The notes beneath the pieces were generated by a model. The model saw only the letters and a program-made list of their open reading frames with translations. It was not told where the DNA came from and did not search any database. 64,000 bases of DNA from Acidobacteriota bacterium (GTDB lineage Bacteria > Acidobacteriota > UBA890 > WLXD01), in contig CAXWPH010000002.1 in the NCBI GenBank assembly GCA_963666055.2, positions 32,001 through 96,000 of the forward strand, read 5' to 3'. Below, in pieces: positions 1-61,262 of this stretch (its first letter is position 1; each line of letters starts with the position of its first letter). The position numbers and the translations under genes were made by a program.

Positions 1-425
1 AGGTCGCCGACATCGTGGCGGTCAACAAGGCCGACGGCAGCAACGTCGAACGCGCCCGCGAGGCTGTTGCGGACTACAGCGCTGCGCTGCGTTACGGACG
101 CTCCGAGCCGACCAGCTGGCGTCGTCGTGCCGCCATGACAAGCGCCACCACCGGTGACGGCATTGCCGAAATTTGGGCCCTGGTTGAAGAGCATCGCGCC
201 ACGCTGGCAGGCAGTGGCGAGCTCGCCGAGCGTCGACGACGCCAGCGCATCAAGTGGATGTGGGGCCTGATCGAGGAAACCTTGATTCGCGACTTTCGGG
301 CGCGCGGGGAATCTTCCGGGCAGGTGGCTGCCACCGAGCAGGCGCTGCTCGACGGCGCGGTCACCCCGCGCCGTGCGGCACGAGAGCTCATGGCGCGTCT
401 GGCCGGTGAACCGGATTCCCACTGA
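1..425 (+). CDS. meaB: Methylmalonyl-CoA mutase-associated GTPase MeaB/ArgK, 3' part (truncated by window edge)
   Basis: Frame reads VADIVAVNKADG (G4 motif) ... TSATTGDGIAEIW ... RRRQRIKWMW ... VTPRRAA, typical of the MeaB C-terminus. Confidence 0.85.
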   Translation, partial: VADIVAVNKADGSNVERAREAVADYSAALRYGRSEPTSWRRRAAMTSATTGDGIAEIWALVEEHRATLAGSGELAERRRRQRIKWMWGLIEETLIRDFRARGESSGQVAATEQALLDGAVTPRRAARELMARLAGEPDSH

Positions 426-21860: not shown

Positions 21861-22100
21861 GGCCTGACGATCCGCCATTGCGCCGGTCGCTGTCAAGGCC
21901 CCCGCCCTTCGGCCTCGAACCGAAGCTGCCAGGGCTGGTCAACGCGGCCGACTTGCACCGCTCCCTGACGTTCTCCAACATCTGGACATGGGCGATTCGA
22001 GTCTCGGCGGGAACCTTGCGGCCATCTGGATCAAGAGGTCCCAGCGCGGTCCGATGGACGCCGGCGAGACGGTGCCGTGTCGCTTGATGGACGAGGTGCC

Positions 22101-22769
22101 GTGATCCGGGCTGCCGTCTTCGATCTGGATGGCCTGTTGATCGACTCCGAGCCCTTCTGGCAGCAAGCCGAGGCCGAGGGCTTTGGCGCCGCCGGCCTGA
22201 GCCTGTCGCCAAGCGATCTGCGCCAGACGGTTGGCCGGCGTATCGACGAGGTGGTGGCCTATTGGCTCGAGCGGCGCCCGTGGGACGTCGAACGCCATCC
22301 TCCAGAGAGCGTGCAGGGCAGCATCGTCGAGCGCGTCATCGACCTCATCGAAACGCGTGGCGAGCCGATGCCTGGCGTGCTGTCGGCGGTGAGCCTCTTC
22401 GAAAGCCTCGATCTGCTTCTTGCCGTGGCCTCGTCGTCCTCCAGGCGCATTATCGAGGCCGTATTGGGCCGTTTACGAATGAATGATCGGTTCGCGGTAG
22501 TGCACTCGGCGGAGCTCGAGTCACGCGGCAAGCCCGACCCTGCCGTGTTCCTCACCGCGGCTCGCAAGCTCGGCGTCTCGCCAGGGGAGTGCGTGGCGCT
22601 GGAGGACTCGATAATAGGCCTGCGCGCCGCTCGCGCTGCCGGCATGCGCTGCATCATGGTGCCCGATCCACGCCTTCGCGATGATCCGGCGCTCGGACAA
22701 GCCGACCTGGTGCTCGATACGCTGGCCCAGCTCGACGCCGAAATGCTACGCCGCGCCGTCGACGTCTAG
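22101..22769 (+). CDS. HAD-family phosphatase (HxpB/YniC-like)
   Basis: AAVFDLDGLLIDSEP, VASSS, GKPDPAVFL, LEDS..G..AARAAGM; GTG start after GAGG. Confidence 0.88.
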   Translation: MIRAAVFDLDGLLIDSEPFWQQAEAEGFGAAGLSLSPSDLRQTVGRRIDEVVAYWLERRPWDVERHPPESVQGSIVERVIDLIETRGEPMPGVLSAVSLFESLDLLLAVASSSSRRIIEAVLGRLRMNDRFAVVHSAELESRGKPDPAVFLTAARKLGVSPGECVALEDSIIGLRAARAAGMRCIMVPDPRLRDDPALGQADLVLDTLAQLDAEMLRRAVDV

Positions 22770-23046
22770 CAGGCCGTGGTGGAAGTGTGGCGGGCCTGGC
22801 GACAGGGTCTTGCGAGGAGGAGGCAAGGAGAGAGGAGGAGGCGATGGCTACCCCATCGTTGACGAGGAACGACGCAGCATAGGCGCGCAACCCCCTATCG
22901 CCCGGAGGGTTACGGCGATTTGGGGTCATCTGCGACGTTGGCCCTTCTGGACGATGGCTGGAGCATTGCCGGCGTCAGGCCGCCTTCCATCTGACCCCAA
23001 CTCGCCGCAACCAGGCCCGCTACACTTCCACCACGGCCTGCTCTAG
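22766..23046. mobile_element. Palindromic MITE-like element E1 (271 bp, 22770-23040) at the CTAG stop of the HAD gene
   Basis: 30-bp TIR CAGGCCGTGGTGGAAGTGTGGCGGGCCTGG (29/30 match to the right end), flanked by CTAG and CTCTAG; inverted homolog at 30005-30283; no transposase. Confidence 0.85.
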
Positions 23047-23324
23047 CAGATCTTCAGCACCCCGCTGCCGGGTCGCGCTGCCGTCTGCGCTCGCTTCATT
23101 GATTCAACAGTCTGGCAACGGCAGGGAGGACGTGTCGACGCTACTTCCGCAAGGCCGATCACGGGATTGCGTCAGCTACTACTTCCGCGCCGCCACACGT
23201 ACTCGTATGATCGCCGGAGCGAGGGGGTGAGCATGCGCTTCGAGCTCCAGGCCGGTCGGTGGATACGACCTGTGCTCGAGGAGCCTGACCGGTTCGTCGA
23301 AGAGATCAGCCGGCGCGTTTCGTC

Positions 23325-25067
23325 GTGATCAGCCGCGGGCAGAGCAACAAGAAGACAGGTCGTGGCGGTGTGATCTCCCTACTGCTGCTCGCCCTGCCCT
23401 TCGCAGGCGCCGGGACGTTCGTCGGTTACCTGGCGGGTGCCAGCGTCTCGAGCTGGATCAGAGCGCAGTCGTGGGAGATGGTCCCGGCCCGCATCCTGAG
23501 CGCCAACCTCGAGGTGAGCCATGACAGCGACACCACGACGTATCGTGTCGAGGCCGTCTACGAATACGCCTATCGGGGGGAGCTGCACACCTCGGACGTC
23601 GTTCGCTTCGGCTTCGGATCTGACAACGTCGGCTCGTTCCATCAGGACAAGCACGCTGAGCTGCAGCCCTATGTGGGCTCGGATCGTCGATTCCGTTGCT
23701 TTGTCAACCCGGACGATCCGACCGAGGCCGTCCTCTATCGCGAGATGCGCTGGGGCATGCTCGGGCTCATGGTCATCTTCGCGCTGGTCTTCAGCCTGGT
23801 CGGCTACGGCCTCATGTTTGCGGCCGTCTACGGCAGTCGTCTTGTTGCGGTGGTCGACAAGCTCAAGAAGGGTAACCCGGCCGAGCCGTGGCGTTGGGAG
23901 CATGAATGGACCACCGGTCGCGTATCGTCGGGCGCCAAGGGGACCGTGATCGGTGCTGCCATCTTCGCGACTCTCTGGAACCTGATATCAGCGCCCGCTC
24001 TTTTCTTCGTTCCGACCGAAGTTGCCGACGGCAACCGTCTGGCATTGATCGCCCTCATCTTTCCTGTCATTGGTCTCCTGCTGGTGGGGTGGACGGTGCG
24101 GGCGTTCTTGCGTTGGCGCAAGTTCGGCAGCGCTACCTTCGAGCTGGCCACCAACCCGGGTGTGCTGGGCGGCTACCTCGAGGGGCTGATTCACACCAAC
24201 ATCCGCGGCAATTTGGATGAGGGCTTCGAAGTGACGTTGACCTGCACCCGCACGGTCAGCACCGGCAGCGGCGACAACCGCAGCACCCGCGACGATGTCC
24301 TGTGGCAGGACGCCGCCTTCGTGCGGCGCGGCGCCCTCGGTCTGGGGCCCGAGGGAATCACGGTTCCGGTGCGCTTCGCCATTCCCTTCGGCGCCGCTCC
24401 GGCCAGCGATCCCGGCGGCTACCAGCCGATCCACTGGACGCTGGCGGCCGAGGCCGAGATGACCGGGATGGACTTCGCCGCCGAGTTCAAGGTACCGGTA
24501 TTCAAGACCGACGACAGCGATCCCGATCTGGAGATCGAGTCGGCCGAGGCCGATCGAACGAGCCCACACGACTGGGCCGCCGAGCTCGCCGCGATGGGGA
24601 TCGAGGAGGTTACCGGGGCTGGCGGGCGTCGTTACGTCTTCCGACGCGCCCGGCACAAGGGAGTTGCCGCCGGCGTGACGGCTTTTACGGCGGTCTGGTG
24701 CGGCTTCATCTGGATGATGGTCTCGCTCGGAGCGCCGCTGGTGTTCCCGATCATGTTCGGCCTCTTCGCGGCGATCATGCTCTGGTTCCTGCTCGAACTG
24801 TGGGTCGCCGAGATCAGTGTCGAGGTTGGCAACGGAACACTCGCGTTCACCAAGCGGCTGCTCGGGCCCGGCCGCTCCAGGTCCTTCACGCGCGACCAGA
24901 TCACCGCCCTGCGACCCACCCCCGGCATGCAGGCCAACAACAAGCTCTACTACCGCATCGAGCTCGCGACGCGCACCGACGACGAGCACATCATCGCCAC
25001 TCAACTCGACAGCCAACGTCTCGCCCGCCGCCTGATCGGCGAGATGCAGGAGGCGCTCCGAGCTTGA
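23325..25067 (+). CDS. Multi-pass membrane protein with DUF3592-like domain
   Basis: TM helices, W..VPARILSA...YRVEAVYEY.Y.G..H and CFVNPDDPTEAVL pattern of DUF3592. Confidence 0.7.
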   Translation: MISRGQSNKKTGRGGVISLLLLALPFAGAGTFVGYLAGASVSSWIRAQSWEMVPARILSANLEVSHDSDTTTYRVEAVYEYAYRGELHTSDVVRFGFGSDNVGSFHQDKHAELQPYVGSDRRFRCFVNPDDPTEAVLYREMRWGMLGLMVIFALVFSLVGYGLMFAAVYGSRLVAVVDKLKKGNPAEPWRWEHEWTTGRVSSGAKGTVIGAAIFATLWNLISAPALFFVPTEVADGNRLALIALIFPVIGLLLVGWTVRAFLRWRKFGSATFELATNPGVLGGYLEGLIHTNIRGNLDEGFEVTLTCTRTVSTGSGDNRSTRDDVLWQDAAFVRRGALGLGPEGITVPVRFAIPFGAAPASDPGGYQPIHWTLAAEAEMTGMDFAAEFKVPVFKTDDSDPDLEIESAEADRTSPHDWAAELAAMGIEEVTGAGGRRYVFRRARHKGVAAGVTAFTAVWCGFIWMMVSLGAPLVFPIMFGLFAAIMLWFLLELWVAEISVEVGNGTLAFTKRLLGPGRSRSFTRDQITALRPTPGMQANNKLYYRIELATRTDDEHIIATQLDSQRLARRLIGEMQEALRA

Positions 25068-25080
25068 GCCGGAGCCTGCG

Positions 25081-26070
25081 TCAGCCGGCCGCCGCCTGGT
25101 AGGCGCTGGCGATCGCCGCCAGCGCCAGGATGTAGAAGAGGAACATGAGCCCGAGGAAGGTATTGGTCTTGCCGTCGGCGCCCTCGAACTCCTTCCAGAC
25201 GAAGATTCCCCACGCCGCCGCGACCATCGGCGCAGCCTGACCGATCGCGTACGCGATGGCTACGCCGACGAGGCTCGCGGAGACGAAGTTGAAGACCGCG
25301 CCGGTGCCCCATACGATGCCGCCCAGGAGCCCGAACGCATGGTTCGCCGGTGGCGCGGAAAAAAAGCCGGAGAAGTCGACGGGCGCACCCACGAGCGGGT
25401 TCTTCATGAAGTAGACGTTGAAGACGAAACTGCTCAGCAGCGCTGCCAGCGTGAAGAACACGGCGATGCTGTAGGGCGTCAGCGGATGCCCCGCGGTGAG
25501 CGCCCGGGTCACGAACGGGGCGAACAAGCCCATCAGCAGTCCGGAGATCACACACACCACCAGGCTTTTCCTCGACACCGCTTCGCTTGCCGACGACAGG
25601 CGCGCATAGGCCTTGCCGTCGAAGAACACGGCACCGAGCGCCAGGGCGACGCCGAGACCGAGAATCATTGGGTTCCCGACCGGCTGCAGCGCGTAGCTGA
25701 GCACGACGCCGACCACCAGCGCGATGCCGATGGCCACCGGCAGCGCGACGGCGAGGCCGGCCATCTCGATGCCGGCGACGAGGAGGAGGTTGGCGATGTT
25801 GAAGATCGTCCCGCCCAGCATGGCGTAGGCGATGTTGCTTGAGTCGGCGGACGCGACGTTCTCGAGAAAGCCCTCTCCGGCGCCACCCGTGGAGCCCAGC
25901 GTGAAGGCGTAGACGAGCGACGCGAGAAAGATGCCGAGGGCGAAGTCCCAGTAGTAGTGCTCGAACCGATAGTTCTTGGTGAGCTTGATCGTATTGGCCC
26001 ACGACCCCCAGCAGATGGTGCTCACGATCATCATCAGCATCGCCATACCGAACGTTTCCGCGACGAACAT
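25081..26070 (-). CDS. DMT-superfamily transporter (ureide permease / GRP sugar transporter-like)
   Basis: ICWGSWANT, RFEHYYWDF, GGTIFNIANLLL, AYAIGQAAPMVAAAWGIFVWKEF; AGGAGG RBS before ATG 26070. Confidence 0.8.
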   Translation of the reverse strand: MFVAETFGMAMLMMIVSTICWGSWANTIKLTKNYRFEHYYWDFALGIFLASLVYAFTLGSTGGAGEGFLENVASADSSNIAYAMLGGTIFNIANLLLVAGIEMAGLAVALPVAIGIALVVGVVLSYALQPVGNPMILGLGVALALGAVFFDGKAYARLSSASEAVSRKSLVVCVISGLLMGLFAPFVTRALTAGHPLTPYSIAVFFTLAALLSSFVFNVYFMKNPLVGAPVDFSGFFSAPPANHAFGLLGGIVWGTGAVFNFVSASLVGVAIAYAIGQAAPMVAAAWGIFVWKEFEGADGKTNTFLGLMFLFYILALAAIASAYQAAAG

Positions 26071-26404
26071 GTGCCCTCCTTCTACCAGGCTGCGGTCGCC
26101 GCTCACCGAGCGTCGACAGCGAGAATTGCGCGGAGTCTAGCCAACCTCGCCAACAGGCGCCATGTTGAGGGCCGCCACGCATGACGCAGTTGACGCCGGC
26201 GGGATAGGGCTGGGAGGGCGCGCTCCCGCCGGTACCCTGAGCAGATAAACTCGCCATTGCTTTGGCCACCGAGGTGCGGTGCTGCGAAACTCGAAGCTCG
26301 GCGCGCTTGTCGGCGTGACCGACCGGCGCCGCGACCCGAGAGCGATCGGTCGCGCGATCAACTTTCCGTCGTCGGCTAGGCGGCGACTCGAACCGAGGAC
26401 AATC

Positions 26405-29400
26405 ATGCGTAGGATCAGCCCTCTCGTCACCATGGCAACCCTCCTCGCGTTGGCGATGCCCGCCGCCGGATCTGCCGGGCAGGCGTCGCCCGCCGGGGCG
26501 CAGCAATACCTGGCGCCGCCAGAGGAGCGCAGCACGGATCGCATCGTCCTGCCGCCCTGGTTGCACGGTGTGCCCGTCGACCCCATTACCGGCTACCCGT
26601 ACGGGTACGTGGTATTCGGCCAGGAAGACGAGGAAGGCGACGACGACGAAGAGTCGCAGGACGACTGGGACAAGAAGGACCTGCCACTCGAACCGACACG
26701 CACTGTGGCATTCACCGCCACGGAGGGCTCCTGGCTATCTCTGGACGGCAGCCCCGCCGGGTCGACGGTGCTCTTCGACTTGCTCGGTGACCTCTACACC
26801 GTTCCGATGACCGGCGGAGAGGCGGTGCGAGTCACCGAAGGGATGAGCTTCGACAGCATGCCGAGCTATAGCCCCGACGGCACCGAGGTGCTGTTCGTCT
26901 CGGATCGTAGCGGCTCGGAGAACCTGTGGGTGTTGAAGCTCGATGAGGACGACGAGGACGAGCGCTTTCGCCAGGTGACCAAGGACAAGAGCAGCAACTT
27001 CGCGTCGTCCGAATGGACTCCCGACGGGAAGTACATCGTTGCCGCCAAGGCGGGGGCGGGTGTTCGTGCCCAGAAACTCTTTCTGATCCACGCCGAGAAG
27101 GGCGGCGACGGTATCCAGATCGGAGAAGCGAGCAGCTCCATACGCCAGATGGGCCCCGCGTTCGGCGACGACGATCGTTGGATCTGGTTTGCCACGCGCA
27201 CCGGAGCCTGGCAGTACAACGCGATCTTTCCGCAGTACCAGCTCGCGGTCTACGACCGTCAGACCGGTGAGGTAAGCCAACGTAGCTCACGATATGGCTC
27301 AGCATTCCGGCCGACGCTCTCGCCAGACGGAAGGTGGCTGGCCTACGGAACCAGACACGAGGACCAGACCGGACTGCGGCTGCGAGATCTCGCCACCGGC
27401 GATGAAAGCTGGTTAGCGTATCCGGTGCAGCGCGACGACCAGGAGTCCGTCGCATCGCGCGACGTGCTTCCCGGAATGTCGTTCACGCCCGACTCCGCGG
27501 CGCTGGTGGCGTCGTATGGGGGCAAGATCTGGCGTATCCCGATCGATGGTTCCGCCGCGGTGGAGATTACGTTTACCGCCGAGGTGGAGCTCGAGGCGGG
27601 ACCGAAGCTCGACTTCGACTACCCGGTCGATGATCGTCCCGAGTTCGAGGTGCGCCAGATACGCGATGCGGTGCCCTCTCCCGATGGCCGCCAGCTCGCG
27701 TTCACCGCTCTCGACCGTCTCTACGTGATGGATTGGCCGGACGGTGAGCCGCGACGATTGACCGAGTCGGACAACGTCGAAGCCATGCCCGCCTGGTCAC
27801 CCGACGGCGCCACGCTGGCGTTCGTGACCTGGGACCAGACCGACGGAGGGCATATTTGGGCGATCTCCGCCGCTGGTGGTACGGCGCGCCGGCTGACGAG
27901 AATGAACGGCACCTACACGCAGGTGCCGTGGGCGCCGGACGGCGAGCGCATCGTCGCCGTCCGGGGACCGGCGCGTGACTATCAGGAGGCCACCGGTCCG
28001 TCCTTCGGCGGGGGTGCGAGGGCCGATCTGGTATGGATTCCGGCTGGCGGCGGTGACTGGACGCGAATCGCCTCAATGAGCGGCCGTACCGCTCCACACT
28101 TCGGTGCCGATGCCGATCGCGTCTATCTGTATGCGGGTCGCGCCGGCCTGGTCTCGCTTCGTTGGGACGGCACCGATCTGAAGGAGCATCTCAAGGTCAC
28201 CGGCCCGCCGATCCCGGGGGCGGAAGGGCCGCCGCCGCCTGCCAGATGGGTGAAGATCGCGCCCACCGGCGACAAGGCGCTGGCACGCGTTGGTATGGAC
28301 CTCTATGCCATCGAGGCCATTCCACTGGTTGGCGCCGAGGCGCCATCGATCTCGATGGCGAACATCTCCGACGCACCGGTTCCGGTGCGCAAGCTCACCG
28401 ATATCGGCGGCGAATTTCCGGCGTGGAGTGCCGACGGCAATACTGTGCACTGGTCGATCGGCAACGCCCATGTGACCTACGACCTCGAGGAAGCCGAGCG
28501 TGTCGACGAGGAGCTCGAGGCCGAGAAGAAGCGCAAGGCGAAAGAGGAGAAGGAGAAGGCCGCCGCTGAGAAGGAGGCCGGCGAAGAGGGCGCAGACGTT
28601 GCCGAGGGCGACGAAGACGAAGCCGGGGAGGATGACGACGGCGCTGGCGAGGACGACGAAGACGAGGGTTATGAGCCGTTCGAGAAGCGCGTCGTGGTCA
28701 TGGCGTCGCGAGATCTTTCAACCAGCACCGTAGTGCTACGGCGCGCGCGCGTCATCACCATGAACGGCGACGAGGTGATCGACAACGCCGATATCGTGAT
28801 CGAGGGCAACCGCATCAAGGCGGTCGGGCGGCGCGGCCGCGTGCAGATCCCGGATGGCGCCGAGCGCATCGATCTGCGCGGCAAGACCATCGTGCCGGGC
28901 TTCGTCGATACACATGCCCACATGTGGCCGAACTGGGGTCTGCACAAGCAACAGGTGTGGATGTACCTCGCTAACCTGGCGTACGGGGTGACCACCACAC
29001 GTGACCCGCAGACCGCCACCACCGATGTGCTGACATACTCCGACAAGGTCGAGACTGGAGAGCTCATTGGCCCGCGCGTGTACTCGACTGGGCCAGGGGT
29101 GTTCTCGGGCGAACGCTGGCGCGACGCCGACCACGCCCGCGACGTGCTCAAGCGTTACTCCGAGTATTACCAGACCAACACCATCAAGATGTACATGTCG
29201 GGCAGCCGCCAGACCCGGCAGTGGATCATCAATGCTGCCCGTGAGCAGGAGCTCATGCCGACGACCGAAGGTGGGCTCGACCTCGAGTACAACCTGACGA
29301 TGGCGATCGACGGGTACCCGGGGCAGGAGCACTCGCTGCCGATCTATCCTCTGTACGAGGACGTCGTGCAGCTGTTCGCGCAAACCGGGATCACATACTC

Positions 29401-30008
29401 GCCAACCCTGATCGTTAGCTACGGTGGGCCGTTTGGCGAGAACTACTTTTACACTAACGAGAATCCGTACAACGATCCAAAGATCCAGCGCTTCTATCCC
29501 TATTCGGTATTGGCGTCCAAAGCGCGACGGCGAGGTACCGGGGGTGGCGGGAGCCCGGGCCCGGGCGGCTGGTTCATGGACGAGGAATACGCCTTCGAGG
29601 GCCACGCTGAGGTGCTCAGGCGCATCGTCGAGGCCGGTGGTCGTGGCGGTGTCGGCAGCCATGGCCAGTTCGACGGCCTCGGATACCACTGGGAGCTGTG
29701 GATGATCGCCTCTGGCGGTATGTCGAACCACGACGCGCTTCGGGTGGCGACGATCCACGGCGCGGAGGGTATCGGCGTTGAGAACGACCTGGGCTCGATC
29801 GAGCCGGGAAAGATCGCCGACCTGATCGTGCTCGATGCCGATCCGTTGCAGAACATTCGCAACACGAGCCGCATCCACCGGGTGATGAAGGACGGCCGCT
29901 TGTACGGACGGCGCCACCCTCGCCGAGATCTACCCGCGCCAGCGGGAGGTGCAAGGGATGTACTGGTCGGATAGCTATAGTCCCTCTTCGCCTGCGGGGA
30001 TACGCTAG
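26405..30008 (+). CDS. Large secreted amidohydrolase with TolB/PD40 repeats; +1 frameshift at about 29906 in the last ~35 codons
   Basis: Repeated P..SPDG motifs, PGFVDTHAH metal site, GSIEPGKIADL; removing one G at 29906 gives RLYDGATLAEIYPRQR... ending at TAG 30006-30008. Confidence 0.85.
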
Positions 30009-30283
30009 CAGGCCGTGGTGAAAGTGTGGTGGGTCTGGTTACGGCGAGTTGGGGCCGGATACAAGGCGGCCTGACACAGGCGATGCCCTAGCCATCGTCG
30101 AAGAAGGCCAACGCTGCAGATGGCCCCAAAATCGCGCAACCCTTCGGGCGACAGGGGGTTGCGCGCGTATGCTGCGTCGTTCCTCGTCAACGATGGGGTA
30201 ACCATCGCCTTCTCCTCTCTCCTTGCCTCCACTTCGCAAGACCCTGTCGCCAGACCCACCACACTTTCACCACGGCCTGCTAG
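30005..30283. mobile_element. Palindromic MITE-like element E2 (271 bp, 30009-30279), inverted relative to E1
   Basis: Perfect 30-bp TIR CAGGCCGTGGTGAAAGTGTGGTGGGTCTGG with CTAG on both sides; roughly 85-90% identical to E1 by manual alignment. Confidence 0.88.
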
Positions 30284-30609: not shown

Positions 30610-30643
30610 TTGACACTAGGCGCCTGATAGCTCAAGCTATCAG
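30610..30643 (+). promoter_or_regulatory. Putative TA promoter and operator
   Basis: TTGACA at 30610-30615; perfect inverted repeat CTGATAGCT-CA-AGCTATCAG (30624-30643) over the expected -10 position. Confidence 0.6.
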
Positions 30644-30664
30644 TGAACAGAGAGGAGAGGCGCC

Positions 30665-30904
30665 ATGGCCACGGCGACCGTACGAATACCGGCGGAAAAG
30701 CGAGACATCCTGAGGATCATCGCCAGCATCGAGAAGACCGAGATGAAGGAGATCCTCTCCGAGCTCATCGACGAGTACATCGAGCGGCACCAGGAAACGC
30801 TGGACCTTCTCTCGAAGCCGGGGTGGGTCGACATCATCACTCGCGGCAAGCGAGAAGTGGAGACCGGCGTCAAGGGAAAGTCTCTCGATGAGCTGGCGGA
30901 TTGA
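30665..30904 (+). CDS. Type II antitoxin (RHH-like N-terminus, RelB/YefM-like tail)
   Basis: 79 aa, TATVRIP beta strand then helices, ETLDLLS.P...I.RG..E tail; overlaps the downstream toxin. Confidence 0.75.
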   Translation: MATATVRIPAEKRDILRIIASIEKTEMKEILSELIDEYIERHQETLDLLSKPGWVDIITRGKREVETGVKGKSLDELAD

Positions 30905-31154
30905 GATCAAGCCATCCGCCGAAAAGCAGTACCTCAGGCTGGACGCGGTCACTCGTCGGCGGATCAAGGAAACACTGCGCGATCTCGAAGACACCGAGAA
31001 GCCACTGCAACACCCGCGCGTACGACCCCTGACCGGGAAGCTGAAGGGGGACTGGAGAGTGAGGGTCGGGGGCTGGCGCCTTCTCATGACTCCCGATCGC
31101 GAGTCCGAAGTGCTCTACATCTACGCCATTCTTCCCCGCGGCGACGCCTATTGA
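30888..31154 (+). CDS. Type II toxin, RelE/ParE family
   Basis: WRIEIKPSAEKQY.RLD...RRRI, PLTGKLKGDWRVRVGGWRL, ILPRGDAY. Confidence 0.88.
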   Translation: MSWRIEIKPSAEKQYLRLDAVTRRRIKETLRDLEDTEKPLQHPRVRPLTGKLKGDWRVRVGGWRLLMTPDRESEVLYIYAILPRGDAY

Positions 31155-57600: not shown

Positions 57601-57628
57601 CCGGTGTGATCACCGGTGCGACGCCGGG

Positions 57629-57662
57629 CCAGGCCCGCCACACTTTCACCGCGGTCTGCCAG
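57629..57662. repeat. Solo right-end TIR of the E1/E2 family
   Basis: CCAGGCCCGCCACACTTTCACCGCGGTCTG-CCAG compared with the E1 right end CCAGGCCCGCTACACTTCCACCACGGCCTG. Confidence 0.75.
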
Positions 57663-57779: not shown

Positions 57780-59429
57780 GTGGATCCTGCATCCCGCTAT
57801 CGTCTAAAGCGCATCCTGGTCATGTTGTTGTTGGTCGCCTGCGCCCCTGCTCTCACCGGCGCGACCGCAGTAGCGCAGCGTCCGTCGGCCGAGGCGCTGA
57901 AGGAGCAGGTGCGCGAGATCGTCGGCTCTATGAAGAAGCAGTCGCAGGTCATTGTCGACTCGATCTTCTCGTTCGCCGAGCTCGGGTTTCAGGAACACGA
58001 GACGGTCAAGTTGGTCACCGGCCTGCTGCGCGACGAGGGCTTCGACATAGAAACAGGCTGTGCCGGTATGCCGACTTGCTACGTCGCCAGCTGGGGACAT
58101 GGCAAACCGGTGATCGGCCTCATGGGCGACATCGACGGGTTACCGGAGACTTCGCAGAAACCCGGTGTTGCGTACCATGACCCGCTGATCGAAGGCGGCC
58201 CCGGCCACGGCGAGGGACACAACAGCGCGGCTGCAGTGGACGTGGTGGCGGCGGTGGCCATCAAGCGGGTCATGGAGGCGCACGGCCTCGAGGGCACCAT
58301 CAAGGTGATTCCCGGGGTGGCCGAGGAGCTGGTGGCGTCGCGTACCTACATGGTGAACGACGGGCTGTTCGAGGGGATGGACGTGATGATCTCCCCACAT
58401 ATCGGCAGCACGCTCGCTGTCGGATACGGTGCCTGGGGCTCCGGCATGGTGTCGACGCAGTTCACCTTCCATGGCACCTCGGCGCACGGTGCCGGCTCTC
58501 CTTGGGCTGGGCGCAGCGCGCTCGACGCCGTCGAGCTGATGAATGTCGGCTGGAACTTCCGCCGCGAGCACCTGCGACTGCACCAGCGATCACACTACAT
58601 AATCCCGCATGGCGGCAACCAGCCGAACGTCGTGCCGTCAGAAGCGAGCGTTTGGTACTACTTCCGCGAGCTGGACTACGACCGCATCAAGGAGCTCCAC
58701 GAGCTCGGCAAGACCATGGCGGAAGCGGCGGCGATGATGATGACCGGCACCACGGTTACGGAGCGTGTGCTGGGCGTCGCGTGGCCACCCAACGACAGCA
58801 AGCCGCTGGCCGAGCTGATGCACGACAACATCCTGGAGGTCGGTCTGCCGAAGTGGTCAGAGGCCGACCAGAACCTGGCCCGAGCCGTGCAGCGAGAGCT
58901 GGGGGTACTCGGCGAGCGTGACTTCTTCGGCCAGCTCGCCGACGGATTGCCGACGGAGATCACAAGCGAAGAGGCGATTGCCTTCGAACAGGGAATGGGC
59001 GGCGGATCGGACGACATCGCCGAGGTGTCGTGGAACGTCCCGACCGTACGCCTGTGGTACCCGGGCAACATCCCCGGGGCCATTGCGCACCACTGGTCAT
59101 CCTCCATCTCCATGGCGACACCAATCGCCCACGAGGGCGCCAATTACGCGGCGCGGGTCATCGCCATGACGGTGATCGACTTGCTCACCGATCCCGCCAG
59201 GGTGGAAGAAGCTTGGGCCTATTTCCGCGAGGTCACCACCAAGGACTATCAGTGGAGGTCGCTCATTCCCGAGGGCACGCCGCCGCCTGTTCACATGAAC
59301 GCCGACAAGATGGCCCGGTATCGTCCGCAGCTTGAGGCGCTGCGCTACGACCCGACCCGGTTCGAAACCTACCTCGAACAGCTGGGAATCGAGTACCCCA
59401 CGGTCCGAGACCCCCAGCAAGAAGACTAG
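57780..59429 (+). CDS. Secreted M20 amidohydrolase (AbgB-like), paralog 1
   Basis: [38 protein letters not shown]. Confidence 0.85.
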   Translation: MDPASRYRLKRILVMLLLVACAPALTGATAVAQRPSAEALKEQVREIVGSMKKQSQVIVDSIFSFAELGFQEHETVKLVTGLLRDEGFDIETGCAGMPTCYVASWGHGKPVIGLMGDIDGLPETSQKPGVAYHDPLIEGGPGHGEGHNSAAAVDVVAAVAIKRVMEAHGLEGTIKVIPGVAEELVASRTYMVNDGLFEGMDVMISPHIGSTLAVGYGAWGSGMVSTQFTFHGTSAHGAGSPWAGRSALDAVELMNVGWNFRREHLRLHQRSHYIIPHGGNQPNVVPSEASVWYYFRELDYDRIKELHELGKTMAEAAAMMMTGTTVTERVLGVAWPPNDSKPLAELMHDNILEVGLPKWSEADQNLARAVQRELGVLGERDFFGQLADGLPTEITSEEAIAFEQGMGGGSDDIAEVSWNVPTVRLWYPGNIPGAIAHHWSSSISMATPIAHEGANYAARVIAMTVIDLLTDPARVEEAWAYFREVTTKDYQWRSLIPEGTPPPVHMNADKMARYRPQLEALRYDPTRFETYLEQLGIEYPTVRDPQQED

Positions 59430-59613
59430 TGGCCTGTAACAGATGATCGTTGCATATCGTGGTCGCCATCCTGCGGACAGATGGGCAGTTGCGGGCGATC
59501 TCGGCGTTGCGCCTCCTCGACGATGCCCATTGCATCGCCTTCCTCGCCGCGCCTTGATCTCACCCGCAAATCCCATCTGCGATGTGCAACGATCATCTGT
59601 TACAGGCCACTCG
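59426..59613. mobile_element. Palindromic element E3 at the CTAG stop of paralog 1
   Basis: 32-bp TIR AGTGGCCTGTAACAGATGATCGTTGCATATCG (31/32), internal stems CAGATGGG/CCCATCTG and TTGCGGG/CCCGCAA, same core motif as E1/E2. Confidence 0.82.
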
Positions 59614-59636
59614 ACATACTGATTCGGAGGAAACCC

Positions 59637-61262
59637 ATGCCGCGTAACCACTCTCCTCGTTCACCTCGGTGCCTTGCTGCCGCCGTCGGCGCGCTGTCGA
59701 TCGGCTTCTTGGGCGTTGGTGGCTTGTCGGCGCAGCAGCGGCCTTCCGCCGAAGCGCTGAAGGAAGAGGCGCGCGAGATCGTCGGCTCCATGCGCAAGCA
59801 ATCGCAGGTCATGGTCGACTCGATCTTCTCGTTCGGCGAGCTCGGCTTCCAGGAGTACCAGACCGCCGCGTACATCACCGGGATGCTGCGCGACGAGGGG
59901 TTCGACATCCAGATGGGATGCGCCGGGATGCCCACCTGCTACGTCGCCAGCTGGGGCGTGGGCAAGCCGGTGATCGGAATCATGGGTGATATCGACGGGC
60001 TACCGGAGACCTCACAGAAGCCCGGTGTCGCGTACCACGATCCGCTGATCGAAGGCGGGCCGGGACACGGGGAAGGCCACAACAGCGCCGGTGCGGTCGA
60101 CACGATCGCCGCCATCGCCATCAAACGGGTGATGGAGGTTCACGGCCTTCGAGGCACGATCAAGGTGATTCCCGGGGTTGCCGAGGAGCTGGTGTCGTCG
60201 CGCACCTATATGGTCAACGACGGGCTCTTCGCCGATATGGACGTCATGCTGTCGACCCACATCAGCGACAACATGAGCGCCCGCTGGGGGATTTCCGGCT
60301 CCGGGTTGGTATCGACGCAGTTCACCTTCCACGGCACCTCGGCGCACGGCGCGGGCTCTCCCTGGGCCGGACGCAGCGCGCTCGACGCGGTGGAGCTGAT
60401 GAACGTCGGCTGGAACTTTCGCCGCGAACATCTGCGTCTGCACCAACGGTCGCACTACATAATTCCGCATGGTGGCAATCAGCCAAACGTCGTGCCGTCG
60501 GAGGCCAGCGTCTGGTACTACTTCCGCGAGCTCGACTACGACCGCATCAAAGAGCTGCACGAGCTTGGCCGCACCATGGCCGAGGCCGCCAGCATGATGA
60601 CCGGTACCGAGGTTACCGAGCGTGTCTTCGGAGCGGCCTGGCCCTCCAGCATGAGCAAGCCGCTCGCCGAGCTCATGCACGCCAACATCCTGGAGGTGGG
60701 GCTGCCCGAGTGGAGCGAGGCAGACCAGCAGCTCGCCCGCGCGTTGCAGCGTGAGCTCGGAAGCGACGAGATCGAGGGCCTGCCCACCGAGCTGAGCGAC
60801 GAGGAGCTACAGGAATCGGATCAGGGGATGGGGGGTGGCTCGGATGACATCGCCGAGGTTTCGTGGAACCTACCCACGATTCGATTGCGCTATCCCGGCA
60901 ACATTCCCGGGCGCACCGGGCACCACTGGTCGTCGGGCATCGCCATGGCGACACCGATCGCCCACAAGGGCGCCAACTACGCTTCTCGCGTGATCGCCAT
61001 GACGGCGATCGACCTATTCGCCAACCCTGAGAAGGTCGAGGAAGCGTGGAAGTACCACCGCGAGGTGACTACCAAGGATCGTCAGTGGGAGTCGCTCGTC
61101 CCCGAGGGGACCGAGCCGCCGATCTTTCTCAACGCCGAGAAGATGGAACGCTACCGTGCGCGGCTCGACGAGCTGCGCTACGACCCGGCACGTTTCGACA
61201 CCTATCTCGAACAGCTCGGCATTGACTATCCGACGGTGCGTGAAGCCGAAGATCGCGAATGA
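59637..61262 (+). CDS. Secreted M20 amidohydrolase (AbgB-like), paralog 2
   Basis: Same motifs as paralog 1; GGAGG RBS before ATG 59637. Confidence 0.85.

Follow-up and report, generated by a model that had tools for sequence, protein, structure and literature searches.

E1 and E2 of an Acidobacteriota bacterium: probable type II MITEs with exchangeable IS-like ends on a conserved interior scaffold

How the two ends of a gene-less mobile element stay complementary while their sequence changes is the question raised by E1 and E2, two inverted copies of one repeat in a 64,000-nt stretch of an Acidobacteriota genome (contig CAXWPH010000002.1, positions 32,001 to 96,000; hereafter the window). 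E1 (22770-23040, plus strand) and E2 (30009-30279, minus strand) are full-length copies of 271 nt each and were identical at 235/271 positions in a gap-free alignment, in keeping with the 85-90% estimated by hand in the initial annotation. The terminal repeats pair at 29/30 positions in E1, in which position 20 is the mismatch, and at 30/30 in E2. The three paired end changes noted previously were located at element positions 13/259, 22/250 and 26/246, so that the end haplotype is G13/C22/C26 in E1 and A13/T22/T26 in E2; the paired arm-stem change was likewise confirmed, in arm R at 157/225 (T-A in E1, C-G in E2). The folding z scores against 200 shuffles were -8.0 for E1 and -9.4 for E2. Two explanations had been offered, namely, selection of the folded structure rather than the sequence, or copying of one end from the other during mobilisation. 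E1 and E2 are probably copies of a type II MITE (miniature inverted-repeat transposable element) that was moved in trans by a transposase resembling those of the IS1182 and IS5 families of insertion sequences (ISs), with an older scaffold as the interior and with ends that were occasionally re-matched by copying. The three sites singled out initially are, taken alone, ordinary inheritance; mirroring between the ends is real but occasional, and the scaffold with exchangeable ends is the larger feature.

The family was explored in the genome under study (G000; 5.73 Mb, 95.7% complete) and in its relatives. G000 holds 86 full-length copies, 23 copies with one arm (140-210 nt) and 21 collapsed minis; solitary ends are numerous among its 408 end sites. 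CTAG stood on both flanks in 70/86 full-length copies. These elements moved in the past: in four congeners, the orthologous site was empty wherever the upstream gene was found (3/3 for E1, 4/4 for E2), and the empty sites carry a single CTAG, TTAG or CTAA. At the stop adjoining E1, a single CTAG or CTAA was present in G001, G003 and G004; a possible 7-nt remnant was seen at one empty site in G003, and the downstream synteny at the empty sites was clear only for E1 in G001 and G004. According to BLAST, the family occurs in 23 of 41 genomes, including its own, with full-length matches down to approximately 70% identity. Its insertion sites were not conserved between species, and the family had no match in plasmid and phage collections. 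CTAA was found on both sides of two MITE copies in G007 (L225, L231) and of a one-arm copy in G000; hence, a 4-bp target duplication is favoured. Short repeats and a 4-bp duplication are traits of the IS1182 family.

The partner of these ends was sought among the transposases of related genomes. In G011, a genome of the same order, four identical IS copies of 1497 bp are flanked by CTAG, code for a 472-aa DUF772 transposase and have 17-bp repeats. The left end of this IS is identical to E2 over 17 nt and unrelated beyond, and the same outer 17 nt match at 16/17 in E1. The transposase scored 158.6 bits against NF033551 (IS1182, cut-off 270) and 79.7 bits against NF033581 (IS5, cut-off 140), both below the cut-off; the DUF772 domain was found at 69.4 over 23.1, and DDE_Tnp_1_6 was at 21.9, under 25.1. 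Judged by sequence, the G011 element is IS1182/IS5-like and belongs to a related group without a name, its best NCBIfam match being IS1182, below cut-off. Of 78 loci returned for homologous ISs, 49 were examined, and 34 of these carry repeats of 13-17 nt of the same type. Two homologues (L170, L171) have an A13 end and a G13 end, with exact 4-bp repeats (CCAA/CCAA and CTAA/CTAA). Across the MITE family, the outer 17 nt are nearly constant while the interior drops to approximately 70% identity. The earlier argument that a repeat bound by a transposase should conserve its sequence, and that these repeats do not, is not borne out for this part, which equals an IS end. The transposase would read only these outer 17 bases and would have moved the elements by cut and paste in trans, in past bursts.

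A different mover, namely, a hairpin-reading HUH nuclease of the RAYT/REPIN kind or a resident IS630 or IS5, would make the IS1182-like ends incidental, and it is very improbable. Such a mover would suit the absence of the cognate DDE enzyme from most carriers, the CTAG flanks of the resident IS630 and the compensatory hairpin changes that are likewise described for REPINs (PMC3116915). Against it, profile searches for Y1_Tnp gave 0 matches in G000 and a match in only 1/26 genomes of the order, the resident IS5 has TTAA flanks and different ends, the resident IS630 has ends unlike those of E1 and E2, and E2 matches the G011 IS end at 17/17 positions. The search of G000 with DDE_Tnp_1 returned the IS5, in eight copies with TTAA flanks, and a further lone transposase gene, neither of which shares the E ends; that with DDE_3 returned one CTAG-flanked IS630 with ends unlike E, and that with DDE_Tnp_1_6 returned none. 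The eight near-identical IS5 copies (L001-L008) represent a recently active IS of the genome that is unrelated to the MITE ends. The resident IS630 (L018, L079) lies at the same site in G000 and G002 and adjoins a 29-nt collapsed E-type end. A derivation of E1 and E2 from IS630 is not supported by the ends, since those of IS630 in G000, G002 and G007 differ from E and match a sister family instead. An autonomous element between facing ends was also sought in G000: 38 listed pairs were less than 6 kb apart and outside 255-275 nt, and the seven translated (0.7-3.9 kb) held ordinary genes and no transposase. In G039, two end pairs of 1.86 kb were resolved as MITEs into which an IS1182 had inserted, and not as the partner. 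No partner was found for the end types of G039 or of G058/G106, in a search of which one set of loci was not examined further. In G007, 146 DUF772 and 43 DDE_3 matches in a genome of 5.1 Mb indicate a massive IS expansion.

The element has a fixed geometry of 30 + 101 + 9 + 101 + 30 nt, that is, a terminal stem, arm L, a centred 3-bp mini-hairpin and arm R. In E1, all on the plus strand, these parts are the left terminal repeat (22770..22799), arm L with the conserved core in its purine-rich orientation (22800..22900), the mini-hairpin with a 3-nt loop (22901..22909), arm R with the inverted homologue of the arm L core (22910..23010) and the right terminal repeat (23011..23040). Both arms hold one core of approximately 64 nt in opposite orientations. 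The stems carry compensatory changes: among 16 copies from 15 genomes, 45/97 predicted pairs had two-sided changes, a number reached in 0/500 shuffles, where the copies are kin rather than independent and the structure was derived from the same alignment. The two-sided changes lie mostly in the outer arm stems, and much of the core is conserved in sequence. The 30-bp stem and the central mini-hairpin were part of the best four-way arrangement in 11/12 elements (29 bp in one, cut one base late), and L287 failed this junction test. The family with IS630-type ends also showed a compensated stem in the test. The loop of the mini-hairpin read purine-N-A in 158/167 readable copies; GNA triloops are stable in DNA. 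The proposal that structure rather than sequence is selected is partly supported, in that the stems co-vary throughout the element; it is not supported for the outer 17 nt, which conserve their sequence and match an IS end.

The same scaffold was found under other end types. In G000, a first count gave nine such elements with IS5-type ends and eight with IS630-type ends; when paired elements of all sizes were included, the numbers were 12 and 15, respectively. The IS5-type MITE ends match the two ends of L069 of G007 at 17/18 and 15/16 positions (NF033581, 269.7 bits, cut-off 140), and the IS630-type ends match L084 of G007 at 11-12/13 (NF033545, 292.5 bits, cut-off 100). The IS5-type MITE retains the left-right difference of its IS, indicating that both IS5 ends were captured. 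The ends of the scaffold in G035 are 14/15 to an IS1182 member in G039 (364 bits, cut-off 270). Hybrids with one E end and one foreign end are present in G000 at C15:429327 (a full 271 nt), C2:112373 and C6:66350; 13 junctions between families share one 4-mer, and the IS630 copies of G007 are frequently at the flank of a MITE. The model of the arm core matched in 27/101 genomes of the phylum, and when the best locus per genome was compared, the elements, of approximately 270 or 165 nt, bore eight or more end types unrelated to one another. Two loci (L037, L298) are bare hairpins of 102-107 nt with the arm core and without IS-like ends. Outside the phylum, the core model matched in 1/5 and 2/61 genomes, with weak E-values and a short calibration. 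The elements at L311, L312 and L382, also outside the phylum, have a single arm, a core related to this one, and ends that are IS630-like or IS5-like.

The co-variation of the three end sites was then resolved into blocks. At positions 13/22/26, 54 of the 86 copies in G000 are ATT at both ends and nine are GCC at both ends, and the two haplotypes also exist in three other species of the genus (G002, G003, G004). The r2 between partner sites was 0.48/0.41/0.55, whereas that between non-partner sites across the ends was 0.51/0.48/0.56. The cross-end correlation (r2 0.4-0.56) exceeded the median of 0.025 for 91 other distant pairs, and no pair-specific linkage was found at the three diagnostic sites. 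Since the correlation is high but not partner-specific, the three-site difference between E1 and E2 reflects the inheritance of blocks, and the sites are mostly inherited end haplotypes that predate the species. They do not represent three independent events; the correlation between left and right repeats that the initial annotation proposed to look for exists, but non-partner sites are as correlated as partners. Its deflationary alternative, two subfamilies matching two ISs, is half right: the haplotypes number two, but a single IS can have A13 at one end and G13 at the other (L170, L171), and positions 22 and 26 fall outside the 17-nt IS match.

On a tree of the interior, the G-type ends did not form one clade (six changes; one change in 0% of 200 bootstrap trees), and all four combinations of variants were present at 615/820 site pairs; hence, the copies are mosaics. 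Four ATT/GCC copies have an extra right-hand tail behind them, as expected of a nested insertion at the internal CTAG followed by a deletion; in E2, this CTAG lies at 30088..30091 in the arm R loop, where other copies have taken up nested insertions. Ends may have been exchanged in that the elements and their ISs target the same CTAG, nest, abut and recombine through the shared arms. At G000:C11:160030-160413, four additional 83-nt right-hand tails in tandem attest that nested insertion at the internal CTAG happened repeatedly. At element positions 190-191, approximately 20 of the 86 copies, in different backgrounds, have lost the internal CTAG through the same two-base change, possibly an escape from nested insertion. 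The CTAG-flanked collapsed copies of 24-30 nt (e.g., G000:C15:626771) are mostly G13 (16/20), and full copies are mostly A13. C26 makes a 6-nt direct repeat with the right tip, which would favour collapse to minis. Among the 86 copies, non-diagnostic variants were three times commoner in the left than in the right repeat (51 vs 16).

Rare variants give a separate measure of mirroring between the ends. In 84 copies of G000 (two rows with gaps were left out), four rare variants were mirrored, a number reached in 3/50,000 shuffles overall and in 10/50,000 within-type shuffles. In a wider set, 13 mirrored sites were found in 11/166 copies from eight genomes, and the shuffle maximum was eight in 20,000; without the own genome, there were nine mirrored sites, and the shuffle maximum was seven. 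The relatives' copies in this set are 83 of 90 fetched from the listed BLAST matches to E1 rather than a full census, and three copies of G000 with an indel in a repeat were left out of the mirrored-variant count. Moreover, a non-canonical haplotype was the same at both ends in 5/126 copies (2/20,000 shuffles). Mirroring thus exceeds chance, with a trend to the outer 17 nt (11/62 vs 2/48, p 0.07). In the 166 copies, 110 rare variants were one-sided. Left-right mismatches were also inherited: position 21 was mismatched in 18/18 G007 copies and position 13 in 9/10 IS5-type copies, and the mismatch in the G039 end pairs was kept in 23/27, the other four being equalised. End-to-end copying is therefore occasional, given the 110 one-sided variants and the mismatches propagated through whole families. 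Obligatory copying at each mobilisation, the second option of the initial annotation, would account for the excess of mirrored variants and for their trend to the outer 17 nt; it is largely refuted by the inherited mismatches and is extremely improbable.

A trace of the copying step itself may be present in E2. A 10-mer specific to E2 (element 138-147, minus strand, 30133..30142) has three differences from the consensus and is the exact reverse complement of element 115-124 (30156-30165), 13 nt upstream. This template-switch-like footprint is the kind of change that template switching gives, and it was the sole such case among the 86 copies. At G000:C9:53-215, a 163-nt IS5-type copy has two identical ends, including an extra base, which could be end copying or a fold-back artefact at the contig edge.

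Another account without ongoing end-to-end copying is that of ordinary subfamilies, in which each end type or mirrored variant is a separate founding event with its own IS. In its favour, the three E1/E2 sites follow from the haplotype blocks, matches to IS ends are found for many mirrored variants, and mismatches persist. Nevertheless, the variants C10, T1, G2 and G15 were mirrored in single copies and matched no IS end among the examined homologues; the sister copies C10_90416 and C12_373299 (support 100/89) bear different mirrored variants; positions 18-30 and the arm stems co-vary without an IS counterpart; and a founding event must still make both ends alike. This account is unlikely. Under the preferred reading of transposase-moved MITEs with occasional copying, the interior would fold into the predicted four-way junction, and the folded single strand would let one arm template the other during replication by template switching. 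Such templating would be occasional and independent of transposition, and whole subfamilies, the E1 and E2 types among them, would then inherit the mirrored changes.

Selection would keep the geometry fixed and the arm core conserved in sequence, and the level of that selection was considered next. Copies were concentrated behind genes: 47/86 adjoin the TAG of an open reading frame (ORF) of at least 150 codons, compared with 1061/4700 background CTAG sites (22.6%; p 1e-10). Selection on host RNA, with copies behind stops acting as 3' structures of mRNA, would agree with this enrichment and with the strong covariation, which would then reflect it; other MITEs are reported to be co-transcribed and to affect mRNA stability (PMC3184786). 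Yet the copies lie either way round behind genes (30 vs 18), the wobble pairs from one-sided changes favour neither strand (G-U 72 top, 90 bottom), one-sided variants, 110 in number, are tolerated, insertion sites are not shared across species, and the stop-codon enrichment is also explained by the loss of insertions inside genes. Selection at the RNA level is quite unlikely. The mixed orientation, the wobble counts and the triloop register of the mini-hairpin argue weakly for single-stranded DNA over RNA as the selected form, and in the model selection would most likely act on a single-stranded DNA fold that favours the spread or the tolerance of the element. Two-arm copies were on the locally G-rich strand in 52 vs 26 cases (p 0.004), an effect limited to copies at stops (33:9; others 19:17), and the one-arm cores showed the opposite trend (14 vs 7, p 0.19); the skew on these contigs often changes sign, which clouds the reading of any strand bias. 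A bolder version is conceivable but doubtful: the replicator may be a folded single-stranded DNA chassis with a four-way junction, a 30-bp stem and an arm core recognised by a protein, which outlives any one transposase, captures the tips of CTAG-targeting ISs (IS1182-like, IS5 and IS630) and equalises them by fold-templated copying. It would reveal a single-strand step or a host factor, so far undescribed, that unrelated DDE transposases have in common.

Several results weigh against the preferred reading. A protein of the G011 transposase type had no match in the genome under study, and an intact one was found in only 1/26 genomes of the order, though the MITE is in most; nor were the G011 MITE copies clearly younger than those in G000 (median nearest-neighbour distance 8 vs 7). 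With regard to the 4-bp duplication, 16 full-length copies in G000 have non-canonical flank pairs, of which none repeats its variant 4-mer and 8/16 fit TA only. The junction test was run without a shuffled control, and ViennaRNA predicted either a single long hairpin or a three-way junction whose 5-nt linker is unpaired, and did not predict the mini-hairpin. Four of the 23 one-arm copies share the same junction with differing private changes; two arms may not be needed for spread, and the one-arm copies may have moved after deletion or arisen repeatedly. A multi-base templated change was seen in only 1/86 copies. Approximately half of the mirrored variants (C4, A12, C11, C18) are also present in natural IS ends and could be recruited from, or selected by, other ISs, and minor subfamilies may account for some of the mirrored copies (L241, L270), the 13 sites being in just 11 copies.

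The surroundings of the two copies are as follows. E1 is immediately behind a HAD-family hydrolase gene (22077..22769, plus strand; Pfam), whose TAG stop forms the left flank, with the CTAG target at 22766..22769; the right flank (23041-23046) reads CTCTAG. The CTAG target of E2 (30005..30008) is probably the true TAG stop of a PD40/amidohydrolase gene that starts at 26279 (Pfam), and CTAG is also at 30280..30283 on the other side. The G002 orthologue of this gene stops at the TAG corresponding to the E2 flank, and the assembly apparently has one surplus base near 29906 in the gene, which is missing from the contigs of runs X1 and X4; together, these make the E2 CTAG the likely true stop. At 30643-31154, 360 nt from E2, an 82-aa ORF precedes a gene for a ParE-family toxin, and the two probably form a type II toxin-antitoxin pair. 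A solitary decayed end of the E1/E2 family is at 57628..57662 (minus strand), and at 59430..59609 lies a copy of the sister family (C2:91430), reduced by deletion to 180 nt, which has IS630-type ends and shares the arm core. Within 57875-61208, two neighbouring genes resemble each other at approximately 76-86% across long stretches, at a spacing of 1860 nt, and the copy of the IS630-type element lies between them. Rfam gave no match over the gathering score in the window; only sub-threshold matches to miRNA hairpins were returned.

Type II MITEs share only their terminal repeats with an IS (PMC10969869), and the family agrees with this class as it is gene-less, 271 nt long and present in 86 copies, with a terminal repeat of 30 bp where 10-15 bp or more is expected of the class, a target repeat, a stable fold, empty sites in relatives and a likeness to an autonomous IS that is confined to the ends (17/17 to the G011 IS). 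By the features examined, as these are given in PMC10969869 and PMC11602168, the element fits a type II MITE. It differs in that elements whose ends belong to different IS families keep one interior geometry and core sequence, in that the stem is 30 bp although just 13-18 nt match an IS, and in being G+C-rich. Searches of the open-access literature gave no account of the E family, of end exchange or of one interior under the ends of several IS families, a scope that excludes subscription papers, ISfinder and the supplementary MITE catalogue of PMC11602168, which may list these sequences. The partner shares CTAG flanks, short repeats beginning CAG and a DUF772 transposase with known IS1182 and IS5 (NF033581) elements, whereas its scores are below both NCBIfam cut-offs. 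In quasi-palindromes, template switching homogenises the arms of inverted repeats and gives multi-base templated changes (PMC5941160, PMC8604942); the inverted-repeat arms in the E family differ in being 211 nt apart and would be brought together by internal hairpins, and template switching would be the corresponding step here. REPINs are described as hairpin replicators in which length and pairing matter more than interior sequence and compensatory changes are common (PMC3116915). They have an HUH nuclease as partner, and none was found here, where the ends are DDE-type with a 4-base flank. Also comparable is bcr1 of the Bacillus cereus group, a mobile repeat whose two stem-loops give a cruciform-like fold that compensatory changes maintain (PMC3184786). 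The E family likewise has two internal stem-loops with compensatory changes, but by description rather than by sequence comparison, bcr1 is approximately 155 bp with 5-bp direct repeats, whereas the E family is 271 bp with a 4-base flank; the available part of that account mentions no IS-matching or exchangeable ends. A MITE is usually pictured as IS ends around decaying filler. Here, the filler is fixed in geometry and core across the phylum and the ends change family, which reverses the picture. The scaffold offers a concrete route for the origin of type II MITEs and for their survival after the loss of a transposase, and the family is a natural archive of copying between the ends: it offers hundreds of copies, countable mirrored and one-sided changes and a defined transposase.

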